Both the position numbers and the translations under genes were made by a program. 34,881 bases of DNA from Gemmatimonadaceae bacterium. GTDB taxonomy: Bacteria; Gemmatimonadota; Gemmatimonadetes; Gemmatimonadales; Gemmatimonadaceae. Shown here in pieces: positions 15,230-22,514 of the stretch (position 1 is the stretch's first letter; each line of letters begins with the position of its first letter). Under the pieces are notes generated by a model. That model saw only the letters and a list, made by a program, of their open reading frames with translations, was not told where the DNA came from and did no database searches. The stretch covers positions 1 through 34,881 of the forward strand of contig DATEHJ010000285.1 in the NCBI GenBank assembly GCA_035279645.1. Direction: 5' to 3'.

Positions 15230-16045
15230 TTAGTGCGTGTCGACCAGGTTGAACCGGTAGCCTACCCCGGGCTCCGTCACGATGTACCGCGGCCTAACGA
15301 CATCCCGCTCGATCTTGCGTCGCAGATGCGCCACCTGCACACGCAAATATTGTTGTGCGTCGCCATACGTGCGGCCGCTCCATACTTCGCGAAAGAGCTG
15401 CTGATGTGTGAGCGTCCGACCCGCTTGTGTCGCGAGCACGCGCAGCACGTCCCACTCCGTTCGCGTGACATGTACGTACTCGCCTTTCACGGTCACGGTG
15501 CGCGCCACGAGATCGATCACGAGATCACCCGACTCGATGCGCGTATCCGCATTCGCCGTCTCGCTCTTCGCGGCGCGGCGGAGCAGTGCCCGGACACGCG
15601 CTTGCAGCTCCGTCGTGCTGAATGGTTTCGTGACGTAGTCGTCGGCGCCGGCATCCAGCAGTGCGACCTTCTCCGTGTCGGAGTGACGCGCCGACAGCAC
15701 GAGAATCGGCGCACGCGTCAGCGCGCGCAGCGCGCGGCACAAGTCCGCGCCCGACATATCCGGCAAGCCGAGATCGAGCACGATGAGCTCCGGACGCTCC
15801 GTGCTGCCCGCGTCGAGACCACTCGCGGCGTCCTTCGCCTCGACGATCCGCGTCGTCGGACTCTGTAGCGCGGAGCGCACGATGCGCCGGATCTGGGGCT
15901 CGTCGTCGATGACGAGGACCGTGAGTGATGTTGCCGGACGAGAAGGCTTGGATTCGGACGTCGCCACGATGTGATAGTCGCGGTTCTCTATCTGAGAGAA
16001 GCTTAACAAGCCAAGCCGCGCGATACCCGTGCTTGACAGTTCCAT
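15230..16045 (-). CDS. kdpE: OmpR-family response regulator, KdpE-like
   Basis: Close resemblance to KdpE through both domains (LDLGLPDMSGADL, PILVLSARHSDTEKVALLDAGADDYVTKPFSTTELQARVRALLRR, LTHQQLFREVWG, YLRVQVAHLRRKIE, RPRYIVTEPGVGYRF). About 45 aa precede the receiver domain. An internal GTG at 15967 is an alternative start. Confidence 0.85.
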   Translation of the reverse strand: MELSSTGIARLGLLSFSQIENRDYHIVATSESKPSRPATSLTVLVIDDEPQIRRIVRSALQSPTTRIVEAKDAASGLDAGSTERPELIVLDLGLPDMSGADLCRALRALTRAPILVLSARHSDTEKVALLDAGADDYVTKPFSTTELQARVRALLRRAAKSETANADTRIESGDLVIDLVARTVTVKGEYVHVTRTEWDVLRVLATQAGRTLTHQQLFREVWSGRTYGDAQQYLRVQVAHLRRKIERDVVRPRYIVTEPGVGYRFNLVDTH

Positions 16046-16104
16046 CAGCGGACCGCAGTTCTCAGGTCGGGTCCTGACGACATCTTCGGAAGGAGCGTGG
16101 CACT

Positions 16105-17061
16105 ATGCGGCGTTCGACGACGGTTGTCGACGGTGCAGTAGGCGGTATGCTCGCAGGGGCGGTCGTGGCCGGCTGGTTTTTCGTGGTTGACCTCGCGACG
16201 GGTCACCCATTTCACACGCCGCAGGTGCTCGCGGCGGCGCTGCTCGGACACGAGCCGACACTCGCGACGGCGCGTCTCGTCGCCGTTTACACGTTGCTCC
16301 ATCTGGGCGTGTTCACACTGCTCGGCATCGGCGGCGCGTGGCTGATGCACGTCACTGGTGAGGTGCCACGCCTCCTCACCGGCGCGCTCTTCGGCGTCGG
16401 TGCGCTGAGCGCGACGCACTACGGCGGATTGCTCCTCCTCGGCGTACCAGTCCTGACGTTATTGCCCCCCGTCCATGTTCTGGCCGCGAATCTCGTTGGC
16501 GGAGTGGCGATGATGCTGTATCTGCATCAGGCAACGCAGGAGTCCGTGCCGTTCGGCCCGGCGATGCTCAAGAACTATCCCCTGATCGTCGACGGGTTGT
16601 TAACGGGCACGATCGGCGCGGCGGCGATCGCGCTCTGGTTCCTGATCATCGACGCGCTCGCCGGGCACCCGCTCTTCACTCCAGCCGCGTTAGGCTCGGC
16701 GTTCCTGCTCGGTGCACAGTCTCCGAACGATGTTCAGCTCACGGTGGGGGTCGTTGTTGCGTATACGCTGATTCACGTGCTGGCGTTCTTCGCCGTCGGC
16801 GTTGGCATCGAATGGGGTGCTCGGCAACTCGAGCGCTTCCCGTCGTTCTGGCTCGTCGCGCTCATGGCCGTCATCGTGCTCGACGTTCTCTTCGTCGGCA
16901 TCGTCGGCAGTCTCGCGCTCTGGGTCCTCGGCGCCGTTGGGCTCTGGGCGGTCGTAATCGGCAACCTGTTATCCATGGGCGCGATGGGCTATCGGGTGTG
17001 GCGAGAGCGTCCCGAACTTCGAGAACGCTTTGCGCGTATGCCTGAAGCGACGCGGGCATAG
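16105..17061 (+). CDS. Polytopic membrane protein of unknown function, built from two homologous ~4-TM halves
   Basis: ATG 16105 is preceded by GGAAGGAG (16088-16095). About 8 hydrophobic helices. Residues ~7-140 align with ~161-297 (see finding). No known family recognised. Confidence 0.75.
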   Translation: MRRSTTVVDGAVGGMLAGAVVAGWFFVVDLATGHPFHTPQVLAAALLGHEPTLATARLVAVYTLLHLGVFTLLGIGGAWLMHVTGEVPRLLTGALFGVGALSATHYGGLLLLGVPVLTLLPPVHVLAANLVGGVAMMLYLHQATQESVPFGPAMLKNYPLIVDGLLTGTIGAAAIALWFLIIDALAGHPLFTPAALGSAFLLGAQSPNDVQLTVGVVVAYTLIHVLAFFAVGVGIEWGARQLERFPSFWLVALMAVIVLDVLFVGIVGSLALWVLGAVGLWAVVIGNLLSMGAMGYRVWRERPELRERFARMPEATRA

Positions 17062-17111
17062 CAGTGCGGGGTGCCATATAAAAAAATCATGAAAAACTGA
17101 TGCCCGTACTG
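17062..17111 (+). promoter_or_regulatory. Inverted repeat (CAGTGCGGG / CCCGTACTG) enclosing a strongly AT-rich 32-nt island upstream of the KimA-like gene
   Basis: CAGTGCGGG at 17062-17070 pairs with CCCGTACTG at 17103-17111 (9 bp including one G-U). The loop GTGCCATATAAAAAAATCATGAAAAACTGAT is the most AT-rich stretch in the window. It contains TATAAA and, on the minus strand, TTTTCA...TTTATA T-tract half-sites. Confidence 0.3.
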
Positions 17112-17174
17112 TCGACGGTGTGGTGGATGCGCGTCGTTCATATGTACCCCACCGCGCACCGCCGCACCGTCGGA

Positions 17175-19145
17175 ATGCCCACCACCATAAAACGTGTGAA
17201 GAATCTGCTCGTCGGCCGACCCCTGCCGAGCGAGCGACTCGAGCACGAACGCCTCAGTAAGAAGACCGCGCTCGCCGTTCTGTCCTCGGATGCGATCTCG
17301 TCTGTTGCATACGCGACCGACCAGATCCTCTTTGTGGTTGGCGGGGCCATCGGCTTGGCGGCAATCAACTACGTCCTCCCGATCTCGGCCGTCATCGTTG
17401 GCCTGCTGGTGCTCGTTGGCCTTTCGTATCGGCAAACGATCTTCGCCTATCCGGGAGGAGGCGGCTCGTATACCGTCGCGAAGGACAATCTTGGCGTCGG
17501 CCCCGGGCTCATCGCCGCCGCCGCGCTGCTGACGGATTACATCCTCACTGTTGCCGTCTCGATCTCGTCAGGCGTCGCCGCGATGACGTCGGCGTACCCG
17601 GCCCTCTTCCCGCACACCGTCCTGTTGTGCGTTGTCTCGATCGTGCTGTTGACCGTTGTCAATCTGCGCGGCGTCCGCGAATCGGGGATTGCCTTCAGTC
17701 TTCCGACGTACGCGTTCATTCTCGTTATGCTCGCGCTGATCGCGACGGGCATCTACCGTGGTTACACGGGACACGAGCTCGCGCCGATCGGGGCGCCGAT
17801 CAAAGTCGATCCGACCTCGGCGAGGTCACTATTCCACTCGCCCGCTGGTTTCGCATTCTTTTATCTGATGCTGCGCGGCTTCGCCGAAGGCTGCGCGGCC
17901 ATGACCGGCACCGAGGCCATCTCCAACGGCATCTCCGCGTTCAAGAAGCCAGCACCGCGGAACGCGTCGGTCACGCTCGTGTGGATGGTGACGATTCTCG
18001 CCGCCTTCTTCCTCGGCACCAGCGCTCTCGCCCAGCACTACGGTGTGATGCCGACAACGGAGCAAACCGTGCTCTCGCAGCTCGGTCATCACATCTTCGG
18101 TACGAATCCGCTGTACTACTTCTTTCAGTACGCGACGTTCGCCGTCCTCGTCCTCGCCGCCAACACCGCGTTCGCCGATTTCCCGCGACTCGCCGGCATC
18201 CTCGCGAACGATCGCTTCATGCCGCGTCAATTCTCGGCGCGGGGCGACCGCCTCGCGTTCTCGAACGGGATCATCACGCTCGCGCTCATCGCGATGTTGC
18301 TCGTCGCGCTCTTTCATGGCGACACGAACGCCCTCGTGCCCCTATATGCGATCGGTGTGTTCATCTGCTTCACGCTCTCGCAGGCCGGCATGGTGGTGCA
18401 CTGGATTCGGACCAAGGAGCCCGGCTGGCGCTGGCGCGCGACCCTGAATGGCATCGGCGCCGTGGCGACGGCGCTCGTCTCACTCATTCAGATCGTCACC
18501 AAGTTCACGAGCGGCGGCTGGATCGTGGCGCTGATCATCCCCGTGATCATCGTTGTCCTTCGCAAGATTCATCGGCATTACGAGGAATTCGCGCGCGAAA
18601 TCGAGTTCGATGGCCAGAGCCCGATCACGCCGCTGCATCACACGGTCATCGTGCCCGTGCATGGCATCACGAAGGCGGTCGCCGGGGCCCTCGTGTACGC
18701 GACGACGATCTCGGACGAGGTACTCGCGCTCTACGTCGAGGTTGACAAGCGCGAGACGGCGGTGCTCCAGCAGGCGTGGGACGAGTGGGATGTCGGCGTG
18801 CCGCTGGTGGTACTGCCGTCGCCCTATCGGTCGGTGCTGCGTCCGCTCGTCGAATATGTTGAGAACTTGCGAATGGTCACGCCGGGCGAGCTGGTAACCG
18901 TCGTCGTCCCCGAGGTCGTGCCGCGGCGGTGGTGGGAGCACTTCCTTCACAATAAAACGGCTCTTTACATCCGGACGGCGTTCCTCTTCAAGCCGAACGT
19001 CGTCATCACAAGCGTGCCATATCTACTCGGCCACTCCTATCGCCTGCGCGACCTGATCGACTACGACGACGACCTCGAAGAGTCCGTGCCGTTGCCGAGA
19101 ATCCCCTTCCGGAACTCAGGTCCCAGGCGCGCAATAAACGAATAG
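17175..19145 (+). CDS. kimA: APC-superfamily permease with C-terminal cytoplasmic domain, KimA-like (putative K+/H+ symporter)
   Basis: As far as I recall B. subtilis KimA (YdaO), this matches along its length: N-terminal IKRVKNLLVGRPL...LSSDAISSVAYATDQIL, LSYRQTIFAYPGGGGSYTVAKDNLG, LLTDYILTVAVSISSG, NLRGVRESG, GCAAMTGTEAISNGISAFKKPAPRNA, LAANTAFADFPRLAGILANDRFMPRQFSARGDRLAFSNGII, and the C-terminal soluble domain (VIVPVHGITKAV, SPYRSVLRPLVEYV, RRWWEHFLHNKTALYIR). Start ATG 17175 preferred (the listed start is 17100). Confidence 0.7.
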   Translation: MPTTIKRVKNLLVGRPLPSERLEHERLSKKTALAVLSSDAISSVAYATDQILFVVGGAIGLAAINYVLPISAVIVGLLVLVGLSYRQTIFAYPGGGGSYTVAKDNLGVGPGLIAAAALLTDYILTVAVSISSGVAAMTSAYPALFPHTVLLCVVSIVLLTVVNLRGVRESGIAFSLPTYAFILVMLALIATGIYRGYTGHELAPIGAPIKVDPTSARSLFHSPAGFAFFYLMLRGFAEGCAAMTGTEAISNGISAFKKPAPRNASVTLVWMVTILAAFFLGTSALAQHYGVMPTTEQTVLSQLGHHIFGTNPLYYFFQYATFAVLVLAANTAFADFPRLAGILANDRFMPRQFSARGDRLAFSNGIITLALIAMLLVALFHGDTNALVPLYAIGVFICFTLSQAGMVVHWIRTKEPGWRWRATLNGIGAVATALVSLIQIVTKFTSGGWIVALIIPVIIVVLRKIHRHYEEFAREIEFDGQSPITPLHHTVIVPVHGITKAVAGALVYATTISDEVLALYVEVDKRETAVLQQAWDEWDVGVPLVVLPSPYRSVLRPLVEYVENLRMVTPGELVTVVVPEVVPRRWWEHFLHNKTALYIRTAFLFKPNVVITSVPYLLGHSYRLRDLIDYDDDLEESVPLPRIPFRNSGPRRAINE

Positions 19146-19176
19146 GGTTGCGTCCGCGTTGAACAAACGAGTGGCC

Positions 19177-20751
19177 TCAAGGGGAATTCGCGGTTCCCGA
19201 AACGGAGCCCAGCGAAACTTCGGACTCGTCTACCGCGGGCAGGAACAACGTGAATACACTGCCACCCCCATCGCGTGCCGCATAAACCAGGCGTCCATTC
19301 TGCGCCTCCGCCACGCGGCGAGCGATTGAGAGCCCCAAACCCGCGCTACCGCTATGCGGCTGACTGCCGTTAGGCAGCTGGAAGGGCTCGAACAGTCGGG
19401 GTACGTTCTCGGCCGGTACGCCCGGCCCGCGATCAGCGACACGAATCGCGATCTCATCTCCGACACGTTCCGCCGACACTTCGATCGATGCCGAGCTGCG
19501 GTCATACTTCTTCGCGTTCTCGACGAGATTGCCGAGCGCTCGCAAGGCGTGGACGAAATCGAAGCGCCCGAAGAGCAGGGCATCGCCGGGTGGCAGCCGC
19601 ACCGCCAGGCGCTTCGCGCCTAACGAGCCTTCCACGCGCTGCACCAGCGCACCAAGCAGGTCATCGACCGCGTTCAACTCGAGCCGCACCGGCAACGCAC
19701 CCGCGTTCAGACGCGACAGGTCGAGCAGATCGGCGACGAACCGGTTCAGACGGTCTGCCTCCTGCTCGATGATCTCACTGCGCTCGTCGCCGAGCGCGCC
19801 GAGGTCATGCGCCATCGCCTTGATCGTCGTCAGCGGCGTTCGCAAATCATGAGAGACCGACGCCAGCAGCGCATCCTTGAGCCGGTCCGCCTCTCGCAAT
19901 GCGACCGCGTGCTCCGCCTCCGCGGCGAGCCTTACCCGCTCGACGCCTAGCGCCGCGTAATACGAGATCGCATCGAGAAAACGCCAGCGCTGCGAGTCCA
20001 GACGTATGCCGCTTCCATCGACCACGCGCAGCACACCGACGGTCCGATTCCGGACGCGCAACGGAAGCAACAGCGCGAGCACACTTCCCCTCTCCAGCAA
20101 GGCGAGCTCACTCGTCGCCGGCCGCGCCGCGGCTAGGTGGGTCGTTCCATCACGCTGCTCGACGACGGCGACGCCGCTATCGTTGACCCACTCCGCCAAT
20201 CCGCGCGACGACTCCGAAACGCTGGCCGCCTCTCGTCGCGCGCGCGCCACGACCGCGAAGCCACTCGACGCGCGCATGAGAATCTCGCACGCGTCGACGT
20301 CGATGCTCGAGCGAATGACGCCAGCGATCGCGTCGAGCGCATCGGTCGCATGGGCTGCGTTCAGAGTCTCCGCGCCGAGCGTGGCGAGCCGATCGATCTC
20401 GGCAGCGCGGGCGCGCGCGATGCGCGCCTCTTCCTGAGCCCGATATAGCAGCTGTGCGGCGACGACGCTCGTAACGAGAAACGCGACCAGCACGATCCAA
20501 TCGAGCGGATTCGCGACGACCATTGTGTTGTACGGCGGCAGGAAGAACGCGTCGAACACGACGAACGATGCGGCAGCCACGGCCAACCCGAGCAGACGAC
20601 CACCAGCCGCGCTCGCTCCCAGGACCACAAGTAACAGTATGAGCGCGACATGCACCTCTTTGAGCATTGGCCGTACAGCCAGCATACCGACGGTGCAAAT
20701 GGCCAAAGCCGCGGCCGCCAGCAGCAAAGGCCGGACTCTACTGGCCCGCAT
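19177..20751 (-). CDS. Sensor histidine kinase, KdpD C-terminal type (DUF4118 membrane domain - GAF-like - HisKA - HATPase_c), lacking the N-terminal KdpD/Usp sensor module
   Basis: N-terminal 4-TM region typical of the KdpD membrane domain (HVALILLLVVLGASAAGG...FFLPPYNTMVVANPLDWIVLVAFLVTSVVAAQL). H-box ASVSHDLRTPLTTI. N/G boxes (GNLVENAKKY, DRGPGVP, GLGLSIARR). At 524 aa it is too short to hold the PF02702/Usp part. Confidence 0.85.
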   Translation of the reverse strand: MRASRVRPLLLAAAALAICTVGMLAVRPMLKEVHVALILLLVVLGASAAGGRLLGLAVAAASFVVFDAFFLPPYNTMVVANPLDWIVLVAFLVTSVVAAQLLYRAQEEARIARARAAEIDRLATLGAETLNAAHATDALDAIAGVIRSSIDVDACEILMRASSGFAVVARARREAASVSESSRGLAEWVNDSGVAVVEQRDGTTHLAAARPATSELALLERGSVLALLLPLRVRNRTVGVLRVVDGSGIRLDSQRWRFLDAISYYAALGVERVRLAAEAEHAVALREADRLKDALLASVSHDLRTPLTTIKAMAHDLGALGDERSEIIEQEADRLNRFVADLLDLSRLNAGALPVRLELNAVDDLLGALVQRVEGSLGAKRLAVRLPPGDALLFGRFDFVHALRALGNLVENAKKYDRSSASIEVSAERVGDEIAIRVADRGPGVPAENVPRLFEPFQLPNGSQPHSGSAGLGLSIARRVAEAQNGRLVYAARDGGGSVFTLFLPAVDESEVSLGSVSGTANSP

Positions 20752-20771
20752 TTCGCCCTTCGGAGGCTGTG

Positions 20772-22514
20772 ATGAACATGGACTCTGAGAATCAAACGCG
20801 ACTCGGGTTGAAAACTATGCGGCGATATAGACGGTATGGGGCGCTCGTGGTCGCTTCTTTCCTCCTCGGCGCGTGTCACAGAGGAGACGACGCCGAGGCC
20901 GCCGGCGAAGTGAGCACGTGGACGCCACCGAGCCCGGACGCGATCGACGGAGTCCCGTTGGACGCCGTCAAGAGCGCGATCCAATTGCGCATCACCGGGG
21001 CAGCACCGAAGGGCGTTACAGCCGATACATGGCGTCACGTCCGCTCGCTGTACGCGAACTACGCCGGCGTACCACTCTGGCTCGACACCCAGGGACTCTC
21101 GAACGATCGCGTAACCGAGCTCGCCAATGCGCTCGCTTCGGCGGATAGCGACGCCATTCGCGTCGACACTTATCCAATCGGGGCGTTGGCAAGTGCGGTC
21201 TCAGCGTTGCGCGCGAGCAAGACACCGACAGCCGAGCAATTGGCCGACGCCGACGTGTTGATGACCAGCACTTACGCGGCGCTTGGTGAGGACCTACTCA
21301 CTGGACAGATCGATCCACATACCGTTTCGCAGAGCTGGTACATCGATCCGCGAGAGGATCACGTCGACAGCGCGCTCGCGCGGACGCTGCGCGAGGGCCC
21401 GCTCGACCGATCGATCCAGCGGATTCGGCCTCAGGATCCGGTGTATGACTCGCTTCGGACGCAGCTCATGCTCTATCGCGAGCTCGCGTCAAAGGGTGAT
21501 TGGCCGACCATTCCGAAAGGCCCGCAACTGAAGCCCGGTGAGAGCGGCACGCGAGCTCGCCTAGCGGCGCTTGCCGAGCGGCTGCGCGCCGAAGGCTACC
21601 TGCCGGCCGACACCACACATGTCTCGGCGGCGCCGACGCGGTACAGCCATGGCCTCGCCGGAGCGGTCGCGCGATTCCAGGCGCGTCACGACATCGGCGT
21701 CGACAGCATGCTCGGGCCGGAGACCGTCGACGCGCTCAACAAGCCGCTGAGCTTCCGACTCGGCCAAATTGCGGCGAACCTCGAGCGATATCGTTGGCTG
21801 CCGCGCTCGTTAGGCGACCGGTACATCCTCGTGAACGTTCCGGCATTCGAGCTCACGGCCTTCGATCAAGGCAAGCCGGCGCTTCAGATGAAAGTGATCG
21901 TCGGTCAAGACTACCAGGGCAAGGCGACGCCGGTGTTCAGCGACTCGATGGAGTTCGTTGTCTTTCGCCCGTATTGGATCGTGCCGGACAGCATCGCGAA
22001 GAAGGAGGTCTATCCGAAAGCCGAGGCCGACCCGTCGTTCATGGCGCGCAACAATTTCGAGATCGCGACGATTGACCGGCGCAAGCGCGTGCGGCAACGG
22101 CCGGGGGACAAGAACTCGCTCGGGCTCGCCAAACTCATGTTCCCGAACGACTTCAACATCTACTTACACGACACGCCGCAGGGAGAGCTGTTCGACAAGG
22201 ACGTGCGCGCGTTCAGTCATGGTTGCATTCGTCTGCAGCATCCGGATTCGCTCGCCCACTTCGTCCTCGGCTGGTCGCTCGACCGCGTGCATCAACAAAT
22301 GCACAACGGGCCGGACAACCACACGGTGAATCTGTCGCGGAAGATTCCAGTCTACATCGTGTATTTCACGACGTACCTGCAGGACGACCAGCTGTACTTC
22401 GGCAACGATCTCTATAATCGCGACGACGCGCTCGTGAGATCCGTCGCCAAGGCAGCCGTCGGCGACTCGGCGAGCGCGCAAGCCGTGGAGACGCTACGCG
22501 AATCGCGCTCGTGA
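20772..22514 (+). CDS. L,D-transpeptidase, YcbB/LdtD-like (peptidoglycan-binding domain + YkuD catalytic domain)
   Basis: GGAGG at 20763-20767 precedes ATG 20772 (alternative ATG 20817, MRRYRRYGALVVASFLLGAC lipobox-like). PG_binding_1-like LAGAVARFQARHDIGVDSMLGPETVDALN. YkuD active-site stretch NIYLHDTPQGELFDKDVRAFSHGCIRLQHP. Confidence 0.85.
   Translation: MNMDSENQTRLGLKTMRRYRRYGALVVASFLLGACHRGDDAEAAGEVSTWTPPSPDAIDGVPLDAVKSAIQLRITGAAPKGVTADTWRHVRSLYANYAGVPLWLDTQGLSNDRVTELANALASADSDAIRVDTYPIGALASAVSALRASKTPTAEQLADADVLMTSTYAALGEDLLTGQIDPHTVSQSWYIDPREDHVDSALARTLREGPLDRSIQRIRPQDPVYDSLRTQLMLYRELASKGDWPTIPKGPQLKPGESGTRARLAALAERLRAEGYLPADTTHVSAAPTRYSHGLAGAVARFQARHDIGVDSMLGPETVDALNKPLSFRLGQIAANLERYRWLPRSLGDRYILVNVPAFELTAFDQGKPALQMKVIVGQDYQGKATPVFSDSMEFVVFRPYWIVPDSIAKKEVYPKAEADPSFMARNNFEIATIDRRKRVRQRPGDKNSLGLAKLMFPNDFNIYLHDTPQGELFDKDVRAFSHGCIRLQHPDSLAHFVLGWSLDRVHQQMHNGPDNHTVNLSRKIPVYIVYFTTYLQDDQLYFGNDLYNRDDALVRSVAKAAVGDSASAQAVETLRESRS

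Follow-up and report, generated by a model that had tools for sequence, protein, structure and literature searches.

How is K+ uptake controlled at a locus where a Kdp-type sensor pair flanks a secondary transporter instead of a P-type pump? The question is raised by a stretch of DNA of 34,881 nucleotides from a Gemmatimonadaceae bacterium (GenBank assembly GCA_035279645.1, contig DATEHJ010000285.1; hereafter the window), in which genes for a KdpE-like response regulator and a short KdpD-type histidine kinase lie on the minus strand, on either side of a plus-strand kimA. KdpDE is regarded as a switch reserved for the Kdp pump, and to our knowledge the regulation of KimA is known only from Firmicutes, through a cyclic di-AMP (c-di-AMP) riboswitch and c-di-AMP binding. 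We propose that Kdp-type K+ signalling switches on KimA here, and that the split layout arose by a rearrangement specific to the genus; for this reading as a whole, predicted from sequence comparison, we estimate a probability of about 0.6. Its comparative base consists of the gene identities, the synteny, purifying selection, the linkage of one kinase clade to transporters, and the conservation and recurrence of a DNA box upstream of kimA. The features concerned are as follows (in what follows, the labels G, C and L denote genomes, contigs and loci).

15230..16045, minus strand: KdpE-like OmpR-family response regulator (Response_reg and Trans_reg_C domains; phospho-acceptor motif VLDLGLPD)
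16105..17061, plus strand: hypothetical membrane protein with eight transmembrane helices (8-TM), without a Pfam or NCBIfam match; probably a passenger
17076..17096, no strand assigned: predicted regulator box about 75 nt ahead of the kimA ATG, formed by a direct repeat whose period is 11 bp
17112..17173, plus strand: predicted leader hairpin, with 1 nt between its end and the kimA start codon
17175..19145, plus strand: kimA, a homologue of the K+/H+ symporters of the KimA subfamily (KUP family), with a C-terminal cytoplasmic domain
19177..20751, minus strand: short KdpD-type histidine kinase (DUF4118 with four transmembrane helices, GAF, HisKA with H-box SHDLRTPL, HATPase_c)

In the mechanism that we propose, the kinase and the regulator would form a cognate, functional paralogue of the Gemmatimonadaceae KdpD/KdpE, dedicated to kimA in this genus. 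The short kinase, with its four DUF4118 helices, GAF domain and kinase core, would sense K+ limitation in the way that the corresponding part of KdpD does, and would phosphorylate the regulator; the regulator would bind the 11-bp-period direct repeat at 17076-17096 as a head-to-tail dimer, and its binding would activate kimA, the gene of the K+/H+ symporter. The pair would replace the c-di-AMP riboswitch that gates kimA in Bacillus, while a second paralogous pair would have stayed with kdpFABC and a third would have moved to efflux genes. K+ as the signal, the identity of the regulator that binds the box, and activation rather than repression are the parts of this scheme that we infer.

The regulator gene diverges from the 8-TM/kimA side and the kinase gene converges on kimA, leaving a gap of 31 bp, and 3131 bp of plus-strand genes (the 8-TM open reading frame, ORF, and the permease) separate the two sensor genes. 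All four ORFs were found where a preliminary description of this DNA had placed them. The genome is a metagenome-assembled genome (MAG) of 4.27 Mb in 662 contigs, 80% complete. The layout is no assembly chimera, because independently assembled contigs of the source rhizosphere sample bridge all three gene junctions (regulator/8-TM, 8-TM/kimA and kimA/kinase).

By sequence, the permease is a genuine KimA homologue, and K+ uptake is its predicted activity. A phmmer search of the PDB matched KimA alone (6S3K/8B70/8B71; E = 4e-149), aligning query residues 33-641 with residues 5-603 of the 607 in 6S3K, and identity to Bacillus subtilis KimA is 43%. All eight of the K+-coordinating residues listed for KimA (bioRxiv 10.1101/2023.07.05.547876) are identical in the permease: D36, Y43, D117, T121, S125, T230, E233 and Y377. 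With an APC-fold membrane domain, a C-terminal cytoplasmic domain and homology over its full length, the protein belongs to the KimA subfamily, and the KimA-type permease of the preliminary description is borne out. So is the start at 17175: a longer kimA ORF from 17100 is ruled out, since congeners carry frame-shifting indels in this upstream in-frame extension.

The regulator is, as far as sequence can tell, a KdpE-family paralogue. KdpE (NF007820) is its best NCBIfam model at 221 bits, the next model reaching 183; because 221 bits falls below the equivalog cut-off of 325, the protein is not a KdpE equivalog. Its best PDB matches are likewise KdpE (6LGQ_D and 4KNY, about 1e-59), followed at a distance of about 55 bits by the next family at 1e-42. 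The kdpFABC linkage that defines KdpE is lacking, since kdp genes occur neither in the window nor in the assembly. The kinase, in turn, has KdpD as its top NCBIfam match, aligning to positions 402-887 of the 895 in NF007793 with a score below the equivalog cut-off, and KdpD 6LGQ_C as its best PDB match. Its Pfam domains are DUF4118 (PF13493), GAF, HisKA (PF00512) and HATPase_c (PF02518); as expected from the first description, PF02702 and Usp have no match in it, and PF02702 is also absent from the whole assembly. In the translations, the H-box, N, G1 and G2 motifs are present in the kinase and the phospho-acceptor Asp motif in the regulator.

The kinase had been described as truncated, which does not hold. 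A four-helix DUF4118 domain followed by GAF, HisKA and HATPase_c is the histidine-kinase half of a split KdpD, the standard form in Gemmatimonadaceae, and KdpD divided in this way, into a KdpD-N/Usp serine kinase (ASK) and a TM/GAF/DHp-CA histidine kinase, has been described as a class (Silberberg et al. 2024, PMC11018627, where the split kdpD of Alicyclobacillus is cited). Given that the short kinase is the family norm and the split a described class, the window kinase is no truncation product. The kdp locus of Gemmatimonadaceae consists of kdpE, a short kdpD, a small ORF, kdpF-A-B-C, a BBP2-type porin and a stand-alone KdpD-N/Usp protein of about 385 aa, and members of the short-kinase family head kdpFABC in four genomes (G001, G003, G012 and G015); other families within the order have an undivided, full-length KdpD with kdpE behind it. 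The small ORF is a membrane ORF of about 40 codons (L044, G001:C38, 1596-11499; also L060, L064 and L058). A separately encoded KdpD-N/Usp (ASK) partner, present in the kdp loci of the family, was not found in the window or the assembly. Its absence from the window pair fits a kimA target, as there is no KdpB Ser162 to phosphorylate. Many KimA-linked kinases are only about 350-380 aa long (L055, L065, L066, L069, L073, L075 and L036), with DUF4118, HisKA and HATPase_c and no GAF, and thus constitute a still more minimal KdpD-like sensor.

The arrangement is not peculiar to the window. The order regulator (minus), 8-TM (plus), kimA (plus), kinase (minus) is also found in G001, G005 (whose contig ends inside kimA), G006 and G009, and the same layout without the 8-TM gene in G004, G007 and G010; with the window, this makes eight species of the genus. 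Kinase identity to the window is 72-86% across the seven congeners sharing the layout. The ratio of nonsynonymous to synonymous substitution rates (dN/dS) across the genus is 0.04-0.16 for all four genes (regulator 0.07-0.11, kimA 0.04-0.07, kinase 0.05-0.16), at a near-saturated dS of about 0.8-1.5. A synteny comparison thus finds the layout conserved in eight species under purifying selection. The regulator and the kinase have common nearest outgroups (L055, L069, L132 and L036), and because the two genes adjoin there, they derive from one operon and are most likely cognate. In the closest relative, G003 (95% kinase identity), kimA is deleted, and the leader box, the 8-TM gene and both sensor genes are left. 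This deletion (L039, G003:C46, 1979-2204) removes almost all of kimA; the sensor genes are intact, with a dN/dS of about 0.07.

In a kinase tree of 58 rows, the window kinase falls into a starred clade (95/85) of ten rows, eight of which adjoin KimA in three different gene orders. The remaining two are G003, in which kimA is deleted and the box kept, and G011, which has no KimA in its genome and in which the pair is followed by a same-strand Kup (PF02705, 2.6e-186, with K_trans_C). This regulator-kinase-Kup operon of G011 occupies positions 1872-5779 of L132 (G011:C8). Kdp-linked and KimA-linked kinases interleave in the tree, and L052 joins kimA, regulator, kinase and kdpFABC in one locus, which suggests descent from a K+ supercluster, with later duplication and specialisation. 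K+ uptake superclusters were also observed elsewhere (L103, L099, L056 and L057): in an Acidobacteriota genome, kup-kimA with a convergent kdpE-kdpD-kdpCBA behind it; in Gemmatimonadota, tandems of kimA and kup.

Upstream of kimA lies the predicted box, with the consensus CATAAAAAA-nTCRTGAAAA in kimA orientation and the window copy ATATAAAAAAATCATGAAAAA at 17076-17096. Two 8-nt half-sites, repeated with a period of 11 bp, make it up; it is near-invariant in eight members of the genus (at a dS of about 0.8-1.5) in the midst of an unalignable flanking spacer, and it accompanies kimA both where the 8-TM gene stands between kimA and the regulator gene and where it does not. When the 4.27-Mb genome of the window was scanned with a weight matrix made from the eight copies, four hits exceeded the threshold of 18 bits, and the kimA box was the best at 39 bits. 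The second hit (20 bits) precedes the kdp-type regulator gene on contig C364 by about 50 nt, in the same orientation, and G001 and G003 conserve this site; upstream of the window regulator gene, the kinase gene and the efflux-type regulator gene on C61, nothing resembling the box was seen. In other Gemmatimonadaceae, direct repeats of the TCTTTGTG/TCTTTATG type, also with an 11-bp period, precede both kimA and kdpF; these are tandem repeats of the form TCCTTGTG-AAA-TCCTTGTG. The architecture is that expected of an OmpR/KdpE-type regulator site, and it is predicted to tie kimA and kdp to one regulatory family.

Other forms of control were sought in the same region. The leader hairpin at 17112-17173 has a folding energy of -39.4 kcal/mol (z = -3.1) and might block the ribosome site or make the mRNA more stable; covariation gives it no net support, close relatives differing only by wobble-type changes. 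A scan for sigma-70 promoters and terminators gave nothing informative in the intergenic regions. No Rfam element was found at the gathering threshold or at E <= 5 in 15900-17400, and the ydaO-type riboswitch (RF00379) had no match in the 11 genus genomes searched, that of the window included.

How far the association extends was assessed on the 80 best KimA loci from species-representative genomes, 47 of them with full flanks. A KdpE-like regulator and a histidine kinase lie within 3.5 kb of KimA in 22 of the 80 (16 of the 47 with full flanks), kdp genes lie within 7 kb in 16 of the 80, and the loci linked to a regulator and kinase occur in Gemmatimonadota, Acidobacteriota and Chloroflexota. 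Of 21 relatives, 20 have a diadenylate cyclase, yet the c-di-AMP riboswitch is absent from 20 of the 21 genomes. The lone riboswitch (84 bits; G027:C48:174625-174766) lies directly upstream of a KimA-like paralogue that is 31% identical to the window KimA. This distant paralogue (31-34% identical) has all eight K+ residues and KimA as its only PDB match, and in two further genera (G021 and G033) it divergently adjoins a DUF4118 kinase/KdpE-like pair. Riboswitch and two-component control therefore look like alternative solutions for one transporter family within one order. A literature search found no paper describing KimA under two-component control; the regulatory variant would be new, so far predicted only, and built from known parts. 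The rewiring of Kdp-type signalling onto kimA that the preliminary description had suggested is thus supported, as a prediction, by synteny, the kinase clade, the box and recurrence in other phyla.

The genome of the window carries two further paralogous pairs, on C364 and on C61 (the latter followed by an MFS gene), and a Kup on C91. Efflux-linked kinases were noted on C61 of this genome (1-3536) and at L125-L127, L129, L133, L139 and L140. The C364 pair bears on the fate of kdpFABC. It is correct that none lies in the window, as first described, but genome-wide absence is unsafe to claim from a MAG that is 80% complete and has its kdp-type pair at a contig end. A search of this assembly did not find KdpA, KdpB, KdpC, the kdp-locus porin or KdpD-N, and no kdpFABC is assembled, yet the C364 pair is orthologous to the pairs that directly precede kdpF-A-B-C in G001 and G003. 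C364 ends 111-144 bp past the kinase stop, its tail aligns with the spacer between kinase and kdpF in congeners, and it stops just short of the congeners' kdp promoter box. When an extension into the presumed kdpF-A was attempted with source-sample contigs, no piece crossed the end, coverage being about 4-5x. As a kdp-type pair abuts a contig end at about 5x coverage, the missing kdpFABC is most simply, and probably, an assembly gap.

Several observations weigh against control of kimA by the flanking pair. In G003 the pair is intact and under purifying selection despite the loss of kimA, so that at least one further target or function must exist for it. A separate starred sister clade of kinases (100/99), which includes the C61 pair, adjoins MFS/OEP/AcrB efflux genes; this suggests that a K+ sensor family was re-used for efflux control, and it means that the kinase family is not exclusively K+-related and that the K+ inference rests on the specific clade. 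The box of the genus is inverted relative to the T-rich kimA boxes of other genera, and in the species lacking the 8-TM gene it stands, in addition, about 48 nt ahead of the regulator start codon, which makes autoregulation or bidirectional use of the box possible. The kdp-linked paralogous regulator (58% identical) could bind the predicted box instead of, or besides, the adjacent one. RNA evidence consists of just a few small metatranscriptome contigs over kimA, and about 60-70% of the sampled KimA loci have no adjacent two-component system.

Some of these points would also follow if the genes were neighbours without regulatory wiring, kimA being a relic of a kup-kimA-kdpED-kdpFABC supercluster, the pair controlling other genes, and the box being read by the kdp-linked paralogue or serving as a promoter element. 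K+ uptake genes do cluster without obligate regulatory meaning (kup-kimA-kdp in L103, kimA-kup in L056 and L057, kimA after kdpFABC in L060 and L064), G003 keeps the pair without kimA, and the second-best box match stands at a paralogous operon. However, mere neighbourhood would hardly keep the pair beside kimA through the three gene orders of its clade (L069, L055 and the genus), nor would it lead the sole clade member without KimA in its genome to adjoin another K+ importer, Kup. The box, moreover, follows kimA and not the regulator gene when the 8-TM gene parts them, and nothing like it was seen before the regulator gene, the kinase gene or the C61 regulator gene. We therefore regard an unwired neighbourhood as unlikely. 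It is less likely again, in our view, that the pair does regulate kimA but answers to a signal other than K+ limitation, such as osmotic or ionic strength, pH or envelope stress. The efflux-attached sister clade and the integration of several signals by KdpD homologues would allow for this, as would the finding that KdpD of Caulobacter acts chiefly as a phosphatase (bioRxiv 10.1101/2023.07.05.547876). Yet all transporters linked to the kinase clade and its nearest relatives are K+ importers (KimA, Kup and Kdp), and the retained transmembrane and GAF parts are the sensing parts of the kinase half in split KdpD systems (PMC11018627).

By far the least credible account, and one that we reject, is the alternative raised in the preliminary description, in which an insertion or inversion broke a kdpDE operon, parting kdpD from kdpE and leaving decaying orphan genes. 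The kinase and regulator genes are indeed apart, and neither the window nor the assembly holds kdpFABC. But both genes are intact with all catalytic motifs and have a dN/dS of 0.05-0.16 across eight species; decay is excluded by the dN/dS range and dS of the locus given above (0.04-0.16 at about 0.8-1.5), and a separate kdp-type pair exists. Strand order decides against a simple insertion into an operon as well: the family order is regulator followed by kinase, whereas the window reads kinase, then regulator, along their strand. Nor did a cassette split an operon, as had been thought, given that regulator and kinase adjoin beside kimA in the outgroups. The layout of our preferred reading, with a regulator gene pointing away from kimA and a kinase gene pointing towards it, is best explained as a genus-specific rearrangement of an ancestor that had adjacent regulator and kinase genes beside kimA. 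A tandem duplication of kimA-kinase-regulator followed by reciprocal loss would, we infer, give this layout.

A broader reading is offered only tentatively. Short KdpD/KdpE pairs might have radiated in Gemmatimonadaceae, one for each K+ importer (KdpFABC, KimA and Kup) and each with its own box variant, jointly taking over the control of K+ uptake from the c-di-AMP riboswitch; in this genus the kimA pair might then have been taken apart, to be transcribed independently on either side of its target, with one bidirectional box serving kimA and, where the 8-TM gene is missing, the regulator gene.

The 8-TM gene seems to have no part in this. It is at the locus in G000, G001, G003, G005, G006 and G009 and missing from it in G004, G007 and G010 (G010 has an orthologue on another contig), and since it sits upstream of the box, it is not under box control. 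Its homologues are hypothetical proteins without a Pfam family, mainly confined to Gemmatimonadota, and the distant ones stand in unrelated, non-K+ gene contexts. A role as a K+-related partner is ruled out by these contexts and by its absence from the locus in three congeners, so that the K+ link implied when it was described as part of one cassette with the K+ importer falls away; it is probably a later passenger. Residues of about 150-310 alone match short ORFs (about 170-230 aa) found in most relatives, which fits internal duplication of a 4-TM unit. On the other side of the locus, an L,D-transpeptidase ORF (window 20667-20830) probably starts at a lipoprotein-like signal, MRRYRRYGALVVASFLLGAC, at about 20820, and therefore only about 68 bp would separate it from the divergent kinase start at 20751.

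This locus, together with its relatives, points to an attachment of Kdp-type sensor pairs to secondary K+ importers (KimA and Kup) in several abundant soil phyla. If the proposal is true, the accepted logic of the KdpDE regulon would be widened, and a minimal TM/GAF kinase without the pump-directed N-terminal module would become available for studies of K+ sensing. Annotation would improve as well: kinases of this type are routinely labelled KdpD, and the permeases "APC/amino acid permease". With the predicted box, a directly testable site is at hand.

Among known systems, the kimA (ydaO) of B. subtilis is the closest to the transporter gene. It encodes a K+/H+ symporter gated by a ydaO-type c-di-AMP riboswitch and by c-di-AMP binding. 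The window KimA is a full-length homologue that keeps the K+-site residues and the C-terminal domain, and the Gemmatimonadaceae lineage also has diadenylate cyclase; in the genus, however, a two-component box and flanking sensor genes are found in place of the c-di-AMP riboswitch. The box itself follows the pho-box logic of OmpR/PhoB, with two 8-nt half-sites 11 bp apart centre to centre, some tens of nucleotides before a start codon, although the half-site sequence is lineage-specific and the orientation in the genus is inverted compared with the kimA boxes of other Gemmatimonadaceae. With the split KdpD class the window kinase shares exactly the TM/GAF/DHp-CA architecture, and the same split is seen in the Gemmatimonadaceae kdp locus, but the window kinase has no ASK partner nearby or in the assembly and is attached to kimA. 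The nearest system for the pair as a whole is KdpD/KdpE of Escherichia coli (KdpE-DNA structures 4KNY and 4KFC, complex 6LGQ). Unlike that system, the adjacent target is a secondary transporter and not a P-type pump, the kinase lacks KdpD-N/Usp, and the pair forms no operon, flanking its target on the opposite strand. The regulator is nonetheless nearest to KdpE, the kinase core with DUF4118 and GAF is nearest to KdpD, an AT-rich direct repeat with an 11-bp period lies upstream of the target, and paralogues from this family stand at the head of kdpFABC in congeners.

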